Of a stretch of DNA of 32,000 nucleotides, positions 9,241-26,776 are shown one piece after another. The stretch's first letter is position 1, and every line of letters begins with the position of its first letter. The stretch is from Candidatus Nanopusillus sp. (GTDB lineage Archaea; Nanobdellota; Nanobdellia; Nanobdellales; Nanobdellaceae), in contig JAPWTW010000004.1 of NCBI GenBank assembly GCA_028275885.1, positions 1 to 32,000 on the forward strand, in the 5' to 3' direction. Position numbers and translations under genes: made by a program. The notes beneath the pieces are model-generated. The model ran no database searches and had not been told where the DNA came from. It was given only the letters and a program-made list of their open reading frames with translations.

Positions 9241-10359
9241 ATGATATCATCAGAAAAAATAACAATAAGTGTTCTAAAAGCTGATATAGGAAGTTTAGTT
9301 GGAAATTCAACTATTCCAGAAATATTTGAAGAAACAGCTTCAGATATATTAGATAAATATAAGGGAGAAAAAATATTTGATTATTTTGTATCACATGTTG
9401 GAGATGATTTGAATTTAATAATATTGCATAATAAAGGGGAAAATAATAGAGAAATACATCAAATTGCATTTGAAATATTTAAGAAAAATTCTGAAATTGC
9501 AAAAGAAATGAATTTATATGGTGCAGGTGGAGATTTATTAAAAAATGAATTTACTGGTTCATTAATTGGAATGGGACCTGGAGTTGCAGAAATGGAATTC
9601 ACATTAAGGTCTTCTGAGTCAATAATTGTGTTTGCTGCAGATAAAGCAGAATCTGGAGCTTTTAATTATCCTTTATTTCAGATGTTTGCAAATCCATTTA
9701 ATACACCAGGTTTGATAATTGATCCTGATATGAGACCCGGATTTAGATTTGAGGTTTGGGATTTATACAATCATAAAAGAGTATATTTAAATTCTCCAGA
9801 AGAAATTTATGATTTATTATTACTAATTGGGACATCTGAAAGATTTGCTATAAAAAGAGTGTATCCTAGGTCCGATAAATATCCAAATAATGAACCTGTT
9901 GCAGTTTCTTCTACAGAAAGATTATATGAGGAAGCTGGAAGATATGCAGGAAAAGATGATCCAGTAATGATTGTGAGAGCTCAAAAAGGATTTCCAGCTG
10001 TTGGAGAAATATTAGAAGCTTTTTCATTTCCATATATGGTAAATGGATGGATGAGGGGATCATACTGGGGTCCTTTATTACCTGTAAGTTTAAAGAATGC
10101 AAGAGCAACAAGGTTTGATGGACCCCCAAGGGTAATTGCATTGGGATTCCAGGTAAAAAAAGATAAATTATATGGACCAGAAGATTTATTTGATGATCCC
10201 GCATTTGATTATACAAGAAATAAAGCATTGGAAATTGCAGATTATATTAGAAGACATGGTCCATTTGAACCACATAGAGTATCCTATGAAGATTTATTAA
10301 CAACAACAGTAAAGCCTATATTAGATAAATTAATTCAAAGATTTGAAGATATAAAGTAA
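9241..10359 (+). CDS. fbp: Bifunctional fructose-1,6-bisphosphate aldolase/phosphatase (class V FBPase)
   Basis: ISVLKADIGS, SHVGDDL, GMGPGVAEMEF, GRYAGKDDPVMIVRAQ (Tyr/Lys/Asp-Asp catalytic block) and DGPPRVIALGFQV all match the FBPA/P family. Confidence 0.9.
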   Translation: MISSEKITISVLKADIGSLVGNSTIPEIFEETASDILDKYKGEKIFDYFVSHVGDDLNLIILHNKGENNREIHQIAFEIFKKNSEIAKEMNLYGAGGDLLKNEFTGSLIGMGPGVAEMEFTLRSSESIIVFAADKAESGAFNYPLFQMFANPFNTPGLIIDPDMRPGFRFEVWDLYNHKRVYLNSPEEIYDLLLLIGTSERFAIKRVYPRSDKYPNNEPVAVSSTERLYEEAGRYAGKDDPVMIVRAQKGFPAVGEILEAFSFPYMVNGWMRGSYWGPLLPVSLKNARATRFDGPPRVIALGFQVKKDKLYGPEDLFDDPAFDYTRNKALEIADYIRRHGPFEPHRVSYEDLLTTTVKPILDKLIQRFEDIK

Positions 10360-18482: not shown

Positions 18483-18557
18483 TGGTGCCACCGCCGGGAT
18501 TTGAACCCGGGACCTCTACCTTACCAGGGTAGCGCTCTACCGCTGAGCTACGGTGGC
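18483..18557 (-). tRNA. tRNA-Thr (anticodon GGU) with genomically encoded 3' CCA
   Basis: The reverse complement folds as GCCACCG-TA-GCTC-AGCGGTA-GAGC-G-CTACC-CTGGTAA-GGTAG-AGGTC-CCGGG-TTCAAAT-CCCGG-CGGTGGC-A-CCA. Its 5' nucleotide overlaps the stop codon of the upstream CDS. Confidence 0.9.
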
Positions 18558-19474
18558 TATTTTCCTATCTTCTTTGATATAATATTTATATATTGTGGAT
18601 TTATACTATAAATATATTCATTGTTATTTATTTCTCTTAATAATATACCCTGTTTATACATTTTATTTAAATATTTTGATACAGTATTCTTTGGAAGATT
18701 TAATATTCTAGATATTTCTCTTGAAGACATTTTGTTTTTATATAATACTTCTAAAATCTTTATTTGTGTATTAGACAATTTTATATCATTTTCTATATTT
18801 TTTATTTCTTCTAATTCTTTATTTATGTTATCTATTCCCTCTTCCAATAAATTATTTAATTCAATAAATATCTGTCTAACATTATTATTATTCCTTCTTA
18901 TTATATTTCTTAATATTTTTTCATCTATTTTTACTCTTCCCTTTAATTTTTTATTTATCAATTTTAATATTTCATCTTCTGGAGGGAATTTCATTTCAAT
19001 CTTTCTATATAATCTATTTAAGAAAGATAAGGTAGCATTCATTATTTGTGGAGATGGTTGAATTAACATTATTGAATGAGCAATCCTATTATCATATAAA
19101 TATTTTAGTTTTTTAGATACATCTTCTGAAAAATTATAATATTCATCTAATATTAATACTATAGGTAATTTATTTTCAAATTTAAAGAATAAGAACTTAA
19201 TATATTTATTTTTTTCAATTATTTCATCTATATCTTTATCTTTTTCATATTCTCCATTTATATATATTACATTATAATCATCTGATAGTTCTTTTTTGAT
19301 TCTAAATGCTAAAGAAGTTTTTCCAGACCCAATTGGTCCATATAATAGAAATATTTCACCATTTATTATAGAATCTTTTACCTTCTTTATTATATCGTCT
19401 ACTCCAACTAAATCTTCACTTGGTCTTATATCTAAAGGATTTTTAGAGAACCCGTATTTTTTCCACCACATCAT
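18557..19474 (-). CDS. AAA+ P-loop ATPase with C-terminal winged-helix DNA-binding domain (archaeal ATPase / distant Orc1-Cdc6-like)
   Basis: 305 aa. Walker A GPIGSGKTS, Walker B LILDEYYNF, C-terminal HTH SSREISRILNLPKNTVSKYLNKMYKQGILLR. Confidence 0.6.
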   Translation of the reverse strand: MMWWKKYGFSKNPLDIRPSEDLVGVDDIIKKVKDSIINGEIFLLYGPIGSGKTSLAFRIKKELSDDYNVIYINGEYEKDKDIDEIIEKNKYIKFLFFKFENKLPIVLILDEYYNFSEDVSKKLKYLYDNRIAHSIMLIQPSPQIMNATLSFLNRLYRKIEMKFPPEDEILKLINKKLKGRVKIDEKILRNIIRRNNNNVRQIFIELNNLLEEGIDNINKELEEIKNIENDIKLSNTQIKILEVLYKNKMSSREISRILNLPKNTVSKYLNKMYKQGILLREINNNEYIYSINPQYINIISKKIGK

Positions 19475-21119
19475 ATTTTATATTATTTAATAATTCTATA
19501 TAAGTTGATATTGACCATAATTGATGTAGGGCTCCTGCAGGTTTTAATTCGTATGCACTGGATCTCTCTGGTAATGTTCCTATCATTTTTATTAATCTTT
19601 CGTTAGATTTCATAATACTATTTATTATATCCCAATATTTTTCCTTATTTAAATTGTATAAATCTATAGCAGCAATATTGTTTATAAAAATCCATGAATC
19701 TCCATTATGCATTGATTTTCCTTCATTTTTGAAATAATTATCTTCATTACTATATGGAATAAATTCTTTATCAAATATTGATAAACTGCTAATTCCTCCC
19801 CATTTTAGATATAAATGTGTTAATGAATAATCAAATATATTTTCCCATTCATAATTTGAAAAGATCTTTGGGTAAAAGTAATAAGATAAAAATACATTAC
19901 ATCTTATCTTTTTATTTTTTATATCATCATATAATGAATAATCTGATAAATAATTCTTTCTAATTGAATTCTTTATTTTTTCTAATTTTTCTTTATATTC
20001 ATCATTCTTTGTATAATTATATAAATTGTCATATGCATTTGCCATTAAAAATTGTATTTCTATCGGATAAATTCTATTTAATGTATCCATCCATGTTTCA
20101 TTTGGATATGCTTTAAATAAAAATAATTTTTCATCTAAATAATTTTCTTCAAATAATTTTAGCTTTTCAATTATATTATTTACTAATTTATCAAATAATT
20201 CTTTTTCAAATAAATCTTTAAATTGAAATAGTCTAAAAATATATAATCCAATTCCATCAGAATTTCCAACATTTTCATTTTTTATATTTTTTAATCTTCC
20301 ATCTAATAAAAAATAATTTGAATATTCAATTAATTTATTTTTTACAATATCTTTATTAATATAATATAATCCATTTAATGAAATTAATAGATCTCTGCTC
20401 CATTCTTGAAAATACCATGGAAAACCTGCAGAAATATTGTTATCATAAATAAAAGATAGTAACCTATTTTCAATTAAATTCTTTCCACTTAAATTTTCTT
20501 TATCCCTTTTATATATTATTTCTAATTCTTTAGCATAAAAAGAAAATGGCAAATATAAATATCTTTCAAATGGAGGTGATTTTCTATATAAATCATAATT
20601 ATAATTTACCTTTACCCATTTATTTAATTCTTCATAAACCTCAAATCCTTTTATTATTACTTCATAGCTTAAATCTCCTTTATTAAATTTTATTTTTACA
20701 TAATCATTACTTTTTTCATTATTATATATTCTTCCCCATTCATCTATATCATATAAATATCTTATATCGAAATAAACATTCAATGTAGAATATTTATTTG
20801 TTTTATATATTAATTTATTATCTATTAATTTATATTCTTCCCATCCATCTTTATATATTATCTTTAAATCATTATAATCTTTTAATATTACTTTTTCAAT
20901 TTCATTATAGTTTATATCTCTATTTTCTATTTTTTCTATTATTTTGATAAAATTGTTGTTATAATATTGTAATAAACCAAAATATCTACTGTTATATAGT
21001 AAAGGTAAAAACAAAAAAGAACCTTTATTATTTATAACAGCATAATCAAAGTTTTCTAATTCAATTACTTTTTTCATACAAATATTTTTGTTAAAAGATT
21101 TATAATTATTTTTATTCAT
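19443..21119 (-). CDS. Glycogen debranching enzyme, amylo-alpha-1,6-glucosidase (GDE C-terminal domain) family
   Basis: 558 aa. GFPWYFQEWSRDLLISLNGL and MHNGDSWIFINN resemble the (alpha/alpha)6 GDE_C motifs. An alternative start exists at Met15. Confidence 0.75.
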   Translation of the reverse strand: MNKNNYKSFNKNICMKKVIELENFDYAVINNKGSFLFLPLLYNSRYFGLLQYYNNNFIKIIEKIENRDINYNEIEKVILKDYNDLKIIYKDGWEEYKLIDNKLIYKTNKYSTLNVYFDIRYLYDIDEWGRIYNNEKSNDYVKIKFNKGDLSYEVIIKGFEVYEELNKWVKVNYNYDLYRKSPPFERYLYLPFSFYAKELEIIYKRDKENLSGKNLIENRLLSFIYDNNISAGFPWYFQEWSRDLLISLNGLYYINKDIVKNKLIEYSNYFLLDGRLKNIKNENVGNSDGIGLYIFRLFQFKDLFEKELFDKLVNNIIEKLKLFEENYLDEKLFLFKAYPNETWMDTLNRIYPIEIQFLMANAYDNLYNYTKNDEYKEKLEKIKNSIRKNYLSDYSLYDDIKNKKIRCNVFLSYYFYPKIFSNYEWENIFDYSLTHLYLKWGGISSLSIFDKEFIPYSNEDNYFKNEGKSMHNGDSWIFINNIAAIDLYNLNKEKYWDIINSIMKSNERLIKMIGTLPERSSAYELKPAGALHQLWSISTYIELLNNIKYDVVEKIRVL

Positions 21120-21128
21120 TTTTTAATT

Positions 21129-22325
21129 ATGAAAATATTATTTTTATCTTGGGGAGTGTTTCCTCAGAAAGGTGGTGGATTAGAAAAAGTAACATATTAT
21201 TATTTGAAATATCTCGATTATTTTAATAATAATGTTTATTTATTTATTTTAAACCTGACTGATGATGTAAAATCTTTTTGGAATAATAAATTAAAGAATT
21301 CAAAAATCTTTGGATTAAATATGAAAGTATATCAATCATATATAGATTATTTTAAATATGAATCTTTTACTTTATATAAAAGGAAAATTATAGACTATAA
21401 AAAGGCTGTAATTGAATATAAAGATAGAATATTGGATTTATTGAAAAAAATGAAATTAGATTTTGATATTATATATGCATATGATTGGTTAACTGCTTTA
21501 GCAGGTATAGAAATAAAGAAAATATATAAAAAACCATTGGTTGTTCATTTTCATTCTTTAGTATATGATAGAGTTGGAGGGAATCCGGATGCTTTAAAAT
21601 ATTTATATGATTATGATTATGGAATAGAATTAGAAGCATGTAAATATGCAGATAAAATTATAGTAGTAAGTAAGAGAGAAAAAGATATATTAACAAAATA
21701 TTATAATTGTGATGAAAAGAAAATTGATGTAATATACAATGCTCCTGATGATGATTTTAATATAAAAGAGAAAATAAATAGTAAAATAAAAGAAAAATAT
21801 AAGATAGTATTATATCTTGGGAGAATGACAATGCATAAGGGTCCAGATTATTTATTAAGGGCAGCTAAAAAAGTTTTGGAAAAAAGAAAGGATGTATTGT
21901 TTATATTTGCAGGAACTGGGGAAATGCTAGAATATTTAATAAAAATGGCTGCAGATTTAAATATATCAAAAAATGTAATATTTACCGGATGGGTTGATGA
22001 TGATTTAGCAGAATATTTATATTCAATAGCAGATATATTTGTTTTGCCATCTGTATCAGAACCATTTGGTTTAACACCATTTGAAGCTTTAAAATATAAA
22101 GACTTTATAATAATATCAAAACAAACAGGAGTATATGAAGTATTAAAAAATGCATTAGCAGTTGATTTTTGGGATGTAAATAAGATGGCCGATTATATAT
22201 TGGCACTATTATCTTATCCAAAATTAGGAGAATATGAGATAAAATTATGTTTGGATGATATAAAAAATTTATCTTGGAGAAATTCTGTAGAAAAACTAAT
22301 TTCTATTTTCAATAGCCTGGTTTAA
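21129..22325 (+). CDS. GT-B glycosyltransferase, GT4/GT5 archaeal glycogen-synthase-like
   Basis: 398 aa. N-terminal MKILFLSWGVFPQKGGGLEKV and C-terminal PSVSEPFGLTPFEALKY (E-x7-E type motif). Confidence 0.75.
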   Translation: MKILFLSWGVFPQKGGGLEKVTYYYLKYLDYFNNNVYLFILNLTDDVKSFWNNKLKNSKIFGLNMKVYQSYIDYFKYESFTLYKRKIIDYKKAVIEYKDRILDLLKKMKLDFDIIYAYDWLTALAGIEIKKIYKKPLVVHFHSLVYDRVGGNPDALKYLYDYDYGIELEACKYADKIIVVSKREKDILTKYYNCDEKKIDVIYNAPDDDFNIKEKINSKIKEKYKIVLYLGRMTMHKGPDYLLRAAKKVLEKRKDVLFIFAGTGEMLEYLIKMAADLNISKNVIFTGWVDDDLAEYLYSIADIFVLPSVSEPFGLTPFEALKYKDFIIISKQTGVYEVLKNALAVDFWDVNKMADYILALLSYPKLGEYEIKLCLDDIKNLSWRNSVEKLISIFNSLV

Positions 22326-23471
22326 TTCTATATCTTTTAAAATATTCATATATGATATAAAAGAATCATATGGGGTTGTAAAAGCCTCTTCCCTAAAATA
22401 TTTATGAACATCCCCATCACTATTATATTTTAAGCTCATATAATAGAAATTATCTGAAGTTGATAGATATCTTAATATATTTAATATTTTTTCATCATTT
22501 TTATACTTTTTATATAATTCTCTCAAATAATCTAAAGCTTCTCTTTGTATACTATCTCCAATCCATGCAGATAGATCTCTCTCAATATCAGCCCATGATA
22601 TTAGTTCTGGAATATTTAATTCATCTTTATAATCAAATTCTTCTGCAGCTTCAGTTATATTATATGTTTCAAAATATTCTTCTTTTCCAATATACTCAAA
22701 TAATTTATTCCAAAATTCAAATATTCCAGATTCTTTCCATATATGTTCTCCAATTGTTTCAAAATCCATAAATATATTTATTATATCTCCAGGGGTGCTC
22801 TTTAACCATAAATAATATTTATCTGCAGTTAATGGATATTCTGACCAATTCTTATTTGTAAATCTAAATCCTATATCATCAGATAATCTATAATTTCTTA
22901 ATAATAATCTTAAATTATTTATTTTTAATTTATATACGTAATTTGGACTTCTATTTCCCAAAATTTTTTCAGTCCCTTCAGTTAATGCTACTTTATATCC
23001 TAAAGAATATACAATTTCTCCAATTTCGTTGTTAAATACAAGTTCAAAGTTTCTAAAGCTTTTAGATTTATAATTAAATATTTCTTTTATTTTCTTTCTA
23101 TGCAATTTTATTTGATTAATAAATTCTTCTTTATCAATTAAATATGCTAATGAATGATAATATGTTTCTGATACAATTTCTACATTTCCAGTATCTACTA
23201 ATTTTTTCCATAATTCTAAAATTTCTGGATGATATAATTCTAATTGTTCAATCAATGTTCCAGAAATTGAAAATGATACTTTTATATCATACTTTGTAAT
23301 ATTGTCATATATCATTTCTAATGCTGGTTTATAACATTTATATACAACCCTATCTAGTATCTTTTTATTTAGATCGTCGTTGAAATAATTTTTATATCCA
23401 ATATCAAAAAATGAATAATACCTTATTCTTCTTGGTTGATGTGCATGGAAATAAAATACAATACCTGTCAT
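22296..23471 (-). CDS. Glycoside hydrolase family 57 alpha-glucan-active enzyme
   Basis: 391 aa. N-terminal FYFHAHQPRR (GH57 region I HQP) and FMDFETIGEH (GH57 D-x-E-x-x-GE region). Confidence 0.75.
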   Translation of the reverse strand: MTGIVFYFHAHQPRRIRYYSFFDIGYKNYFNDDLNKKILDRVVYKCYKPALEMIYDNITKYDIKVSFSISGTLIEQLELYHPEILELWKKLVDTGNVEIVSETYYHSLAYLIDKEEFINQIKLHRKKIKEIFNYKSKSFRNFELVFNNEIGEIVYSLGYKVALTEGTEKILGNRSPNYVYKLKINNLRLLLRNYRLSDDIGFRFTNKNWSEYPLTADKYYLWLKSTPGDIINIFMDFETIGEHIWKESGIFEFWNKLFEYIGKEEYFETYNITEAAEEFDYKDELNIPELISWADIERDLSAWIGDSIQREALDYLRELYKKYKNDEKILNILRYLSTSDNFYYMSLKYNSDGDVHKYFREEAFTTPYDSFISYMNILKDIELNQAIENRN

Positions 23472-23508
23472 AAATATTTTTTAAAGATATAATAATATAA
23501 AATTTAAT

Positions 23509-23823
23509 ATGATTGAAGTTGATGATGAAAAACAAGCATTTATCACTATTGATGGACAAAAATTATATGGTCTTCAAGATTTATTAATTTGGTTATACAA
23601 TGCAGATCAAGATAAATTTAATTATCATAAAAATCATTTTCCCGAATGGATAAAGAATTCATTGAAGGAGGAAAGTTTATATGAAAAGATAAAGGAAGCG
23701 AAAGATAAGGATGAGTATATAAAAATAATAGGAAATTTCTTAAAAACTCATGAAATATATGTAAAGAAAAAATTTTCAAAGGAAGAGGCTGAAATAAGAT
23801 TTTCAAAATTATTAGGATTATGA
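23509..23823 (+). CDS. Small K/E-rich protein of unknown function, first gene of a 3-gene coupled unit
   Basis: 104-aa ORF. Its stop overlaps the ParA/MinD-like start (ATGA). The C-terminal half is highly charged (KEAKDKDEYIKI...KKKFSKEEAEIRF). Confidence 0.5.
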   Translation: MIEVDDEKQAFITIDGQKLYGLQDLLIWLYNADQDKFNYHKNHFPEWIKNSLKEESLYEKIKEAKDKDEYIKIIGNFLKTHEIYVKKKFSKEEAEIRFSKLLGL

Positions 23824-24482
23824 TAGTATCTTTTCTATCATTAAAAGGAGGAGTTGGAAAAACTACATTAGCAAATAATCTTGCAGCATATTTAAAGAAG
23901 GAATATAATTATAAAGTATTGATAATAGATACAAATGGAATTTATTCTTCAAATTTAATATTCTTAAATAATGAAAAATTCTTTGGAAATAAAATATATG
24001 AAGGAATAAAGATATTACCATACTTTCATTTAAAAATTATAGATAATTTAGATTTTAATGTTAATGATTTAAATTATTTGAAAAGATATTATGATGTAAT
24101 TATTTTTGATGTACTTCCAAATATAAATTATATATTAAATATTGAAAAAATATCAGATATAAATTTTCTAGTAATAAATCCAGATTTCTATTCTTTATAT
24201 GTAAATAAAAAATTATATGATCTTTTAGATAAAAATAAAGTTAAAATAATATTAAACAAATATGATAAAAGTATTGAAATAGATTTTATAGAAGATATAT
24301 TTAAGAAAGAAATATATACGGTTATTCCAATAATTAAAGATTTTATTAATTATCAGCTCCAATATCAACCAATTGCATTTTATAATGAAAAATCAAAAGC
24401 ATTGAAATATATAGATGAGCTAGCATATTGTATAACTGGTAATAAAAAGAGGAGAAGTATATTTGATATTATATTTAGATGA
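23820..24482 (+). CDS. ParA/MinD-family deviant Walker-A ATPase
   Basis: 220 aa. SLKGGVGKTTLANNLAAYL (KGGxGKT deviant Walker A), VLIIDTNG, YDVIIFDVLP (Walker B). The C-terminal basic/hydrophobic tail is NKKRRSIFDIIFR. Confidence 0.8.
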   Translation: MIVSFLSLKGGVGKTTLANNLAAYLKKEYNYKVLIIDTNGIYSSNLIFLNNEKFFGNKIYEGIKILPYFHLKIIDNLDFNVNDLNYLKRYYDVIIFDVLPNINYILNIEKISDINFLVINPDFYSLYVNKKLYDLLDKNKVKIILNKYDKSIEIDFIEDIFKKEIYTVIPIIKDFINYQLQYQPIAFYNEKSKALKYIDELAYCITGNKKRRSIFDIIFR

Positions 24483-26098
24483 TATTATTTGAACAATCTT
24501 GGGAGGTATGTAATAAAGTAGGTGGAATATATACTGCAATATCTACTAAGGCAAAATATATGAAAGAAAAATATAATGAAAAATATTTTTTGATTGGTCC
24601 ATATAAAAATAATTTAGAATTTATTGAACTAAATCCTCCAGATTATATAAAAGAAATAAATTATCAGTTAGATGGAATTAAAGTACATTATGGATATTGG
24701 AATATTGAATCAAAGCCAAATGTATTTCTAATAGAATTTGATGAATTTTTTAATAAAGAAAGAAATTTATGGAAATATAAATATTGGGAATGGTATAAAA
24801 TAGATTCTTTAAATTCAGATTTCACTTTTGATGAACCGTTATTATGGTCTGTTGCTGTTGGTATATTTTTAGAAAAATTAGATAAATATTTTAATGAGAA
24901 AAAAATATTACATGCACATGAATGGTTATCTGGGGGTACAATATTATATATAAAGAAGAATAATCTAAATTATAAAACAATATTAACAATTCATGGAACA
25001 GTTATTGGAAGAACATTATCTGAAAGAAATGTAAATGTAGAAAATGCATTGAATATAATAGACCCTGATAAAGATTCATATAGATTGGGAATAAATTCAA
25101 AATATCAATTGGAAAAACAAGCAATATTAAATTCTGATATATTTACAGTTGTATCAGATAATTTAGGAGAAGAAGCATATAAAATATATAAAAGAAAACC
25201 GGATTATATAACATATAATTATATAAATGTGAAAGAAAAGGAATTGTTTAATTATTATAAAATTTCAAAGAAATGGATAGATGAATTTTTGACCTGGTAT
25301 TTTTATCCATATTATGATCTACCAGAAAAATATTTACTAATATATACTATTGGTAGATATGAACCATATAATAAAGGTTTAGATTTATTTATTGATTTAT
25401 TAAAATATTTAGATGAAAGGGAATTAAATACTATTGCATTTATTTTTGTTCCTTATAATATTAAAGGACAAAATAATGATATAATAAGATCTTATAAAGA
25501 GTATATTAAATTGAAGGAAAATATAGAAGAAAACATTCACTTAATTATTAGATCATTATATAATGGAAAAAATATATTAGATAAGTTAGATAGAATAAAG
25601 AATAAAAATCCTCCAATATGTACTCATGATGTAGAAAATAATATTATAATTGAAAAATTGAAAGAAAATAATTTAAATAATGATAAAAATAAGTATGTAA
25701 AAGTTATATATGTTCCAGTTTATCTTGGAAATGATGTATTATTTAGTTTAGATCTAGAATGTATATTACCAGCATTTGATTTTGGCATATTTTTATCAAG
25801 ATATGAACCTTATGGATATACACCATTAGAAGCATTGAACAATTTTGTTCCAATTGTTTTATCTAATAAAACAGGATTTTATAGAAATTTAATAAATAAA
25901 AATATAAGTCATGAATATATAATTAGTGTAGATCCAAACAATTTGGATAAAGAATTTATATATAATAAATTTTTACAATATTATAATTTGGATTTATATG
26001 ATAAAATGGAAATAAAAAAGCAAATGTATGATATATCTAAGAAATTTGATTGGAAAAATAATATAAATGAATATATAAATATTTATGATTCTATGTAA
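24479..26098 (+). CDS. Glycogen synthase, eukaryote-type GT3 family
   Basis: 539 aa. N-terminal FEQSWEVCNKVGGIYTAISTKAKY resembles the animal/fungal glycogen synthase motif as I recall it (roughly FExxWEVxNKVGGIYTVxxTKA). C-terminal LSRYEPYGYTPLEAL resembles PSYYEPWGYTPxE. Confidence 0.8.
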   Translation: MILFEQSWEVCNKVGGIYTAISTKAKYMKEKYNEKYFLIGPYKNNLEFIELNPPDYIKEINYQLDGIKVHYGYWNIESKPNVFLIEFDEFFNKERNLWKYKYWEWYKIDSLNSDFTFDEPLLWSVAVGIFLEKLDKYFNEKKILHAHEWLSGGTILYIKKNNLNYKTILTIHGTVIGRTLSERNVNVENALNIIDPDKDSYRLGINSKYQLEKQAILNSDIFTVVSDNLGEEAYKIYKRKPDYITYNYINVKEKELFNYYKISKKWIDEFLTWYFYPYYDLPEKYLLIYTIGRYEPYNKGLDLFIDLLKYLDERELNTIAFIFVPYNIKGQNNDIIRSYKEYIKLKENIEENIHLIIRSLYNGKNILDKLDRIKNKNPPICTHDVENNIIIEKLKENNLNNDKNKYVKVIYVPVYLGNDVLFSLDLECILPAFDFGIFLSRYEPYGYTPLEALNNFVPIVLSNKTGFYRNLINKNISHEYIISVDPNNLDKEFIYNKFLQYYNLDLYDKMEIKKQMYDISKKFDWKNNINEYINIYDSM

Positions 26099-26131: not shown

Positions 26132-26776
26132 ATGACATCATTTGCAGATTTCATACTAAACCTAGTAAATATATTGGGAATAAATCTAATATTTACTTTT
26201 CTATTTTATTTTGGAATATTATATTTTCTAATAAAATTTCTATTGGATAGCATTGGAAAAAAAGATGAAAAAGAAGGAAAGAAAGATATAAATAGTATAT
26301 TAGCATTTATTATATCTGTTTCTGTATCATTATTATTAACTACATTTACTGGTTTTGTATTATATACTCAATATTTTGTAGCCTTTGTAGTTTCAATGAT
26401 TTTAGCATTCTTTTTCTTTATACTTTTGGTAGCTTTCTTAACAAATGGTAAAATATTTGAATTAATAGAAAAAAGAATGATCTCAGGTGAAAGACGAGGT
26501 GGTGCCAGAAATATACTATTGATAATAATAGTATTTATTATTTTATTTGCTTTATTAGCTATGTATTATGCATACCAAGATTATTTTTTATCAATAAATT
26601 TTGGTACATCTCCAGCGGCACAAGTTTATACGATAACATTTAATCCTTATATATTATTTGCAATCATGTTTTTTGTTTTAATAGGAATATTTTTAATATT
26701 CTCTGGTACTGGTGTTAGCCCTGAAGGGGAAAAAGGATCTGAAAAGCAGGGTGGAGATAAAGGAAAATCTGGATAA
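26132..26776 (+). CDS. Polytopic membrane protein with G/K/E-rich C-terminal tail, unknown function
   Basis: 214 aa with about 5-6 hydrophobic segments. Tail SPEGEKGSEKQGGDKGKSG. Its stop codon directly abuts the SBDS stop on the other strand. Confidence 0.5.
   Translation: MTSFADFILNLVNILGINLIFTFLFYFGILYFLIKFLLDSIGKKDEKEGKKDINSILAFIISVSVSLLLTTFTGFVLYTQYFVAFVVSMILAFFFFILLVAFLTNGKIFELIEKRMISGERRGGARNILLIIIVFIILFALLAMYYAYQDYFLSINFGTSPAAQVYTITFNPYILFAIMFFVLIGIFLIFSGTGVSPEGEKGSEKQGGDKGKSG

Follow-up and report, generated by a model that had tools for sequence, protein, structure and literature searches.

In a 32,000-nucleotide stretch of DNA from the tiny symbiotic archaeon Candidatus Nanopusillus sp. 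(assembly GCA_028275885.1, contig JAPWTW010000004.1, positions 1 to 32,000 of the forward strand; hereafter, the window), the gene of a GT3 glycogen synthase is preceded by the genes of a MinD/ParA-class ATPase and of a small helical protein. This trio is a conserved unit, the family of the small protein marks alpha-glucan gene clusters, and MinD-like ATPases recur in the same slot of such clusters. There is good support for a functional link between glycogen and the two proteins, the ATPase and the small protein. Their pairing is found again in other DPANN archaea, and this recurrence points to an accessory system of glycogen synthesis that is as yet undescribed. The three genes are the following:

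23509..23823, plus strand: small helical protein of 104 amino acids (aa), first of the trio, with one DUF5752-like domain of about 75 aa and a basic/amphipathic tail (open reading frame, profile search and AlphaFold2 model)
23820..24482, plus strand: MinD/ParA-class deviant Walker-A ATPase of 220 aa, shortened, with a basic-plus-hydrophobic C-terminal tail (Pfam AAA_31/CbiA and AlphaFold2 model)
24479..26098, plus strand: GT3 glycogen synthase of 539 aa (PF05693 Glycogen_syn, E 1.7e-74)

Organization and Conservation of the Trio

The stop codon of each of the first two genes overlaps the start codon of the next in the sequence ATGA, at position 23820, where the DNA reads ...GGATTATGATAG..., and at position 24479, where it reads ...TTTAGATGATAT...; both overlaps had been noted in an earlier first-pass annotation of the window, and they are borne out by the open reading frames and by the DNA read directly. 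The translational coupling deduced from them is another matter: the overlaps are real, but on their own they are weak evidence of a functional connection because 4-bp overlaps are common in this compact genome (an exact 4-bp overlap is found in 5 of the 17 same-strand neighbour pairs of the window, and an overlap of any length in 9).

It is the conservation of the arrangement that carries the argument. The order small protein-ATPase-GT3, with its ATGA junctions, is kept in all eight distinct loci that bear this ATPase subfamily (220–238 aa), across which identity falls to 36% for the ATPase and 44% for the GT3; the loci named are the window, Nanobdella aerobiophila L001, L003, L005, L007, L011 and L013. 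The adjacency is therefore not unique to this genome, a point on which the first-pass annotation had made its proposal depend. The ATPase of the window is 95–96% identical to the proteins of Candidatus Nanopusillus acidilobi and Nanobsidianus stetteri, and the gene order of the window matches that of N. acidilobi from Nps_00355 to Nps_00410. The trio also stays intact in L011 and L013, despite an AI-2E transporter gene and a KaiC-like gene directly after GT3. Beyond this group, a GT3 with 40% identity in another nanoarchaeal metagenome-assembled genome (MAG; L012) has neither the small gene nor the ATPase gene beside it, and the next-nearest ATPases (27–36% identity, approximately 264 aa) lie in unrelated contexts (L009, L094 and L095).

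The Small Protein and Its Family

The small protein had been described as a lysine- and glutamate-rich orphan. The first part of this description holds against the window mean (28% K+E vs. 16%), although two unrelated genes of the window reach 32–34%. The second part is wrong, since the protein belongs to a large DUF5752-like family. A word-indexed search returned only 12 relatives, the named ones mostly from Nanopusillaceae; a profile search of 1.84 billion representatives returned 600 matches at E<=1e-3. The shared domain, of approximately 75 aa, has the motif F.T.DG..L..L.DL..WL....F.YH.N...N.F..WI. and usually occurs as a tandem pair, and it is present as a single copy in the protein of the window.

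Scanned directly against Pfam and NCBIfam, the small protein matched nothing, and DUF5752 gave no match even at E<=10. Intermediates retrieved by its profile do match DUF5752 (PF19027, gathering score 23 bits): P0279 with 48 bits, L091 with 24 bits and P0258 with 23.3 bits. The AlphaFold2 model of the protein has a mean predicted local distance difference test score (pLDDT) of 86.8, and its best fold match in the PDB is OrfY of Thermoproteus tenax (4cso; probability 0.96, root-mean-square deviation 2.1 Å over 82 columns), with a Foldseek E of only 0.33. At the sequence level, a profile search of PDB sequences with the small protein gave chance-level matches only, 4cso not among them, nor did phmmer find 4cso when started from a two-domain relative. 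The domain is thus linked to DUF5752 through the intermediates and, as far as the predicted fold allows, to OrfY.

The same domain is found fused to GH57 (L091) and, in other proteins, to the C-terminal subunit of transketolase, to a pyridine-nucleotide oxidoreductase and to KaiC-like and HerA/FtsK-like P-loop ATPases (P0279, P0345, P0346, P0284, P0320; L041:12276-13553; L072:1112-2251). The diversity of these partners (KaiC-like, HerA/FtsK-like, transketolase, oxidoreductase) is the reason for regarding it as a promiscuous module that is repeatedly paired with ATPases and sugar-metabolism enzymes. The 149 best matches to the small domain included no fusion to ParA, the P-loop partners being only KaiC-like and HerA/FtsK-like. 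One fusion touches the cluster directly: in an Aenigmatarchaeota MAG, a 489-aa open reading frame (L091:6768-8237, plus strand) carries a GH57 catalytic domain (248 bits) and, at its C terminus, a DUF5752-like domain (24 bits, cut-off 23), and this Rosetta-stone arrangement suggests that the small protein contacts GH57. The small protein of the window has a basic tail, KKKFSKEEAEIRF, of the kind that stimulates ParA/MinD ATPases.

A Wider Survey Seeded by the Small Domain

A genome scan seeded with the small domain alone confirmed 466 relatives, of which the best 80 loci were analysed; these were annotated with hidden Markov models built from the window and its relatives, and the denominators given below are the loci that could be assessed for each feature. 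The 80 genome loci come from Woesearchaeota, other Nanoarchaeota, Altiarchaeota, Aenigmatarchaeota and bacteria of the Candidate Phyla Radiation (CPR), and 9 metagenome loci were added to them; some MAG labels (Methanosarcinales, Chloroflexota) look like mis-binning.

Most of these loci show the order GT4/5-GH57-small, and a GT3 or GH133 gene is often found with it. In 38 of 57 genome loci a GH57 gene stands just upstream of the small gene, and GT4/5 is present in 41 of 57. GT3 is part of 20 of 78 loci; in 9 of 68 its gene is the one directly downstream of the small gene. Small paralogs stand in tandem in 32 of 78 loci, and runs of two to four are seen. The two-domain DUF5752-type proteins taken from metagenomes belong, wherever the flank is long enough, to GH133-GT3-small / GH57-GT4 clusters.

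In 10 of 68 loci (L014–L017, L033, L052, L054, L058, L068 and L086) the gene directly after the small gene encodes a MinD-like ATPase. These ten ATPases belong to a second MinD-like clade, from other DPANN archaea, in the same slot and with different flanks. The fullest example is L052, where one strand carries GT4/5-GH57-small-small-ATPase-GT3-GH133, with an ATPase 30% identical to that of the window. In five loci (L016, L017, L054, L058 and L086) the ATPase gene stands between two different small paralogs, and in L016, L017, L054 and L058 a glucoamylase-like GH15 gene comes next. In clusters that lack the ATPase the small gene often abuts GT3 (genome loci L022, L050, L053, L060, L067, L081 and L088), and it also abuts GT3 in metagenome loci (L096, L097, L099, L100, L101, L102 and L104); the existence of small-GT3 clusters without it makes the ATPase look like an insertion into a pre-existing pair.

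Neighbour-joining trees, whose resolution is low, group the linked ATPases of other DPANN as a single clade within the DPANN MinD-like group and place the short 220–238-aa ATPases of the window clade on a separate long branch. Small genes placed before and after the ATPase gene form clades of their own, which suggests that they co-evolved with it. The proposal that ATPase and small protein are tied to glycogen genes, made in the first-pass annotation from a single genome, has therefore been strengthened on two sides, by the eight of eight close loci and by the second ATPase clade in the same slot of other DPANN clusters.

The ATPase

The ATPase has the features of the SIMIBI deviant Walker-A class: the stretch LKGGVGKTT with K9 and K14, the aspartates of Walker A' and Walker B (D37 and D97), matches to AAA_31/CbiA and a MinD-like fold. 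The motifs first read from its sequence were found in place (SLKGGVGKTT at residues 7–16, IIFDVLP at 94–100 and the tail NKKRRSIFDIIFR), and K9, K14, D37 and D97, among them both Walker lysines and the Walker B aspartate, are invariant across its homologs. It scores far below the cut-offs of the archaeal MinD family TIGR01969 (minD_arch; 44.5 bits, cut-off 201.75), the bacterial MinD family TIGR01968 (minD_bact; 28.3 bits, cut-off 212.9), ParA_partition NF041546 (43.1 bits, cut-off 180) and BcsQ TIGR03371 (34.3 bits, cut-off 157.85); judged by sequence, it is a member of the MinD/ParA class that falls outside every curated family scored. Its AlphaFold2 model (pLDDT 91.2) gave 275 Foldseek matches in the PDB at E<=1e-3, with MinD, ParA and Soj at the top; the nearest structures are the MinD proteins of Aquifex (4v03), Pyrococcus (1g3q) and A. 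fulgidus (1hyq), with a template-modelling score of approximately 0.75, and the BcsQ structure 6yay ranks 24th.

In bacterial and euryarchaeal MinD the residue that activates the attacking water is an aspartate, the second one of the IDxD motif. The protein of the window has Asn39 at this position, its IIDTNG aligning to LIDADIG of Aquifex MinD (at the same site, the deposited 4v02 chain reads IDAA and 4v03 reads IDAD). This asparagine is nearly invariant among the relatives and common to the whole DPANN MinD-like group, glycogen-linked or not. Its presence suggests slow, partner-triggered hydrolysis; as a natural change it may slow the reaction in much the way seen with engineered MinD mutants and BcsQ. 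Across the clade the C-terminal tail is basic and amphipathic, its hydrophobic moment ranging over 0.55–0.81.

For N. acidilobi, Supplementary Data 1 lists a further CobQ/CobB/MinD/ParA ATPase, Nps_03280, encoded elsewhere in the genome, and it is for this reason that the glycogen-cluster ATPase is regarded as a dedicated copy, paralogous to this other MinD/ParA gene. Two other identities were discarded. That of a bacterial tyrosine kinase (BY-kinase) fails on a score of 17 bits with TIGR01007, far under the cut-off, and on the lack of a C-terminal tyrosine cluster. The insertion of a plasmid or partition module fails on the absence of ParB, the conserved chromosomal position and an unremarkable base composition; Pfam and open-reading-frame scans of the window neighbours of the ATPase gene found no ParB-like gene, the neighbours being glycogen enzymes.

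The Surrounding Alpha-Glucan Cluster

A full alpha-glucan gene set, comprising GH133, GT4/5, GH57, the small protein, the MinD-like ATPase and GT3, surrounds and includes the trio. The remaining elements of the region are listed below:

23472..23508, no strand: intergenic region of 37 bp, divergent, between the GH57 gene and the small gene (read from the sequence)
22296..23471, minus strand: GH57 glycoside hydrolase of 391 aa, divergent from the trio (PF03065, E 2.9e-74)
21129..22325, plus strand: GT4/GT5-like glucosyltransferase of 398 aa (matches to Glycos_transf_1, Glyco_transf_4 and Glyco_transf_5)
19443..21119, minus strand: GH133-type amylo-alpha-1,6-glucosidase, or glycogen debranching enzyme (GDE_C PF06202, E 2.8e-18)
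18557..19474, minus strand: AAA+ ATPase fused to an ArsR/TrmB-type winged helix (Pfam AAA_14 with HTH_5/TrmB)

The 37-bp region is probably the promoter of a leaderless small-ATPase-GT3 transcript, with a TATA-like TTTTTAAAGATA approximately 26 bp upstream of the ATG of the small gene; this assignment is a cautious one, because TATA-like strings are frequent at the G+C content of the window (approximately 22%). The GT3 passes the gathering score of PF05693 (27 bits) with 252 bits over residues 5–473, and its homologs are spread over DPANN and CPR. A shorter GT3 (529–564 aa in the trio clade vs. approximately 594 aa elsewhere) was considered as a correlate of the ATPase and ruled out, because the ATPase-linked GT3 of L052 has 590 aa.

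The gene of the AAA+/winged-helix protein overlaps that of GH133 by 32 bp. It is kept beside the debranching enzyme gene in L001, L003 and L013 and is absent in L005; the protein is a possible sugar-responsive regulator of the cluster, of which its membership is uncertain. After GT3, the window encodes a small membrane protein (26132-26776), which in L011 and L013 is parted from GT3 by the genes of an AI-2E-family transporter and a KaiC-like ATPase (DUF7125; L011:5242-6989, L013:8667-10357).

Two observations concern more distant parts of the window. A bifunctional aldolase/phosphatase of fructose-1,6-bisphosphate (FBPase_3, E 1e-153) is encoded at 9241-10359 on the plus strand, 9 kb upstream, and fits a gluconeogenesis that feeds glycogen in an organism with almost no other biosynthesis. 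Between 325 and 7962, seven of eight consecutive open reading frames have only 4–9% K+E (window mean 16%), with a G+C content down to 19%; Pfam searches with five of these seven gave no match, and the run is probably the counterpart of consecutive N. acidilobi genes for membrane or surface proteins that are uncharacterised.

Comparison With Known Systems

ParA/MinD ATPases organise DNA, division sites, flagella, chemoreceptors, carboxysomes and cellulose synthase. Among these systems, the closest precedent for the trio is one that the first-pass annotation did not mention, BcsR-BcsQ of the E. coli-type bcsRQABZC cluster for cellulose secretion. In both cases the gene of a small helical protein lies directly upstream of that of a SIMIBI ATPase, at the head of the genes of a glucan synthase, and in both the ATPase has a non-canonical residue at the position of the water-activating aspartate (PMC7840130). 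BcsR and BcsQ stabilise each other, and ATP-bound BcsQ, as a dimer, is required by a self-energised glucan synthase that does not itself need ATP (PMC7840130). The differences are also clear. The polymer here is an intracellular alpha-1,4-glucan made by a soluble GT-B enzyme of family GT3, whereas Bcs makes a beta-glucan with a membrane GT2; the ATPase of the window retains both Walker lysines, unlike BcsQ, which has a threonine for the cis lysine; and the small protein is DUF5752-like, with no similarity to BcsR detected.

Archaeal and bacterial MinD proteins are the best fold matches of the ATPase, in which a deviant Walker A bears the signature lysine and the C-terminal tail, basic and hydrophobic, is reminiscent of a membrane-targeting sequence. 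It differs from them in being 40–45 residues shorter, with internal deletions, in the asparagine that replaces the catalytic aspartate and in its neighbours, which are glycogen enzymes instead of MinC or MinE, neither of which is encoded next to it. As in McdA-McdB and other ParA-adaptor systems, an ATPase is accompanied by a small, charged, fast-evolving partner beside the genes of a metabolic inclusion; McdB is disordered, however, whereas the small partner in the window is a folded and widely distributed domain, and the putative cargo would be glycogen or its enzymes. Finally, the small protein resembles the DUF5752/OrfY type in that two-domain DUF5752-type proteins occupy the same GT3/GH57/GT4/GH133 clusters, and departs from the OrfY type, with its two domain copies, in having one.

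Possible Roles of the ATPase and the Small Protein

The reading ranked first, to which about an even chance is given, is that the trio is a dedicated accessory module of the glycogen cluster that works as a tethering or assembly switch, in the manner of BcsRQ. The small DUF5752-like protein would be a widely conserved partner of the GT3, GT4, GH57 and GH133 enzymes, and the ATPase a MinD-class switch, dimerising upon ATP binding, whose gene was inserted between the small gene and GT3. In its ATP-bound form, the ATPase dimer would bind a surface, most likely the membrane, through the basic amphipathic C-terminal tail and capture the small protein, which in turn would contact the glycogen enzymes, so that synthase assembly or granule initiation would be confined to a defined place and time. 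Such a mode of action would be closer to that of BcsR-BcsQ on cellulose synthase than to an oscillating Min system. The interaction of ATPase and small protein, the binding of the tail to a membrane, the slow hydrolysis and the assembly or tethering of the synthase, or the positioning of granules, are all steps that we infer.

Several observations weigh against this proposal. In the published N. acidilobi co-culture proteome (Supplementary Data 1), GH133 (Nps_00360, annotated as glycogen debranching enzyme), GT4 and GT3 (Nps_00385) were detected, and the ATPase, the small protein and GH57 are absent from the proteins detected; the accessory genes may be expressed at a low level or only conditionally. 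The ATPase is dispensable for the cluster, because only approximately 15% of the small-domain loci carry it. Unlinked DPANN MinD-like proteins likewise have asparagine at the catalytic position, so that this residue does not set the glycogen-linked copies apart, and the C-terminal helix of the ATPase is short (residues 214–219 in the AlphaFold2 model) and of low confidence (pLDDT approximately 50). Lastly, the adjacency in the close clade is only partly independent evidence, because the wider neighbourhood is syntenic too: the flanking genes SBDS, proteasome alpha, TFB and Lon are shared across the hot-spring clade that keeps the trio.

One alternative, the main idea of the first-pass annotation, is the positioning of cargo by a ParA-type mechanism, in which the ATPase would form a gradient on the membrane or the nucleoid and the small protein would act as an McdB-like adaptor on glycogen granules, so that granules are spaced and shared equally between daughter cells. 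The genomic linkage serves this idea equally well, and it gains from the basic tail of the small protein and from the likeness of the ATPase tail to the membrane-targeting sequence of MinD. It is nevertheless thought rather unlikely: a cell diameter of 100–300 nm (PMC4935971) leaves little room for gradients, the asparagine at the water-activating position argues against fast cycling, and fusions of the small domain to soluble GH57 and transketolase fit the recruiting of enzymes better than the coating of granules.

A similarly low probability is assigned to a role in regulation or as a chaperone with no spatial component, in which the ATPase would stabilise or switch the small protein, GT3 or GH57 according to the level of ATP and ADP, and would thereby couple glycogen to the energy state of the cell. 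The mutual stabilisation of BcsR and BcsQ and the requirement for ATP-bound BcsQ (PMC7840130) offer a model for it, and both the optional presence of the ATPase in the cluster (10 of 68 loci) and the replacement of the catalytic aspartate by asparagine are in its favour; on the other hand, conservation of a basic amphipathic tail in the two linked clades suggests binding to a surface, and no sensor domain is present.

Ranked last, and very improbable, is a housekeeping MinD (for division, chromosome, archaellum or chemoreceptors) that stands beside glycogen genes through the frozen gene order of a reduced genome: although the fold and sequence are of the MinD class, the whole neighbourhood mentioned above is syntenic, and Nanoarchaeum equitans, not reported to have glycogen genes, has an abundant MinD (NEQ119), this view has to contend with the second paralog in N. 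acidilobi, the independent ATPase clade in the same slot of other DPANN clusters with different flanks, the unrelated contexts of the nearest unlinked relatives (L009, L094 and L095) and the survival of the trio through local rearrangement. A conventional MinD with its partners elsewhere, which the first-pass annotation had named among the findings that would speak against its proposal, is hence not what Nps_03280 and the linked clade in glycogen clusters indicate.

Implications for Prokaryotic Glycogen Synthesis

According to a 2024 review, archaeal GT3 enzymes are uncharacterised, it is unresolved how they are primed in the absence of glycogenin, and no role is known for the GT4 encoded in the same clusters (PMC11046441). 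Term searches of this review found no mention of the small-protein gene or the ATPase gene; searches of the literature for OrfY, DUF5752 and ParA in connection with glycogen returned nothing relevant, and no description of a glycogen-linked ParA/MinD ATPase was found in the literature searched. A broader proposal, put forward as a speculation with a modest chance of being right, is that the accessory factor still missing for the GT3 glycogen synthases of prokaryotes would be the DUF5752-like proteins, as a functional analogue of glycogenin or of the glycogen-targeting subunits of eukaryotes that would nucleate or recruit the enzymes, that in some DPANN the MinD-like ATPase would fix the site of initiation at the membrane, and that the two would jointly act as an organiser of granule biogenesis. 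In any case, two conserved candidate accessory proteins can now be named for the archaeal GT3 priming problem (PMC11046441): a DUF5752-like family with members in hundreds of DPANN and CPR genomes, and a MinD-like switch that is optional. As small, soluble proteins that are easy to express, both lend themselves to a direct test of the question.

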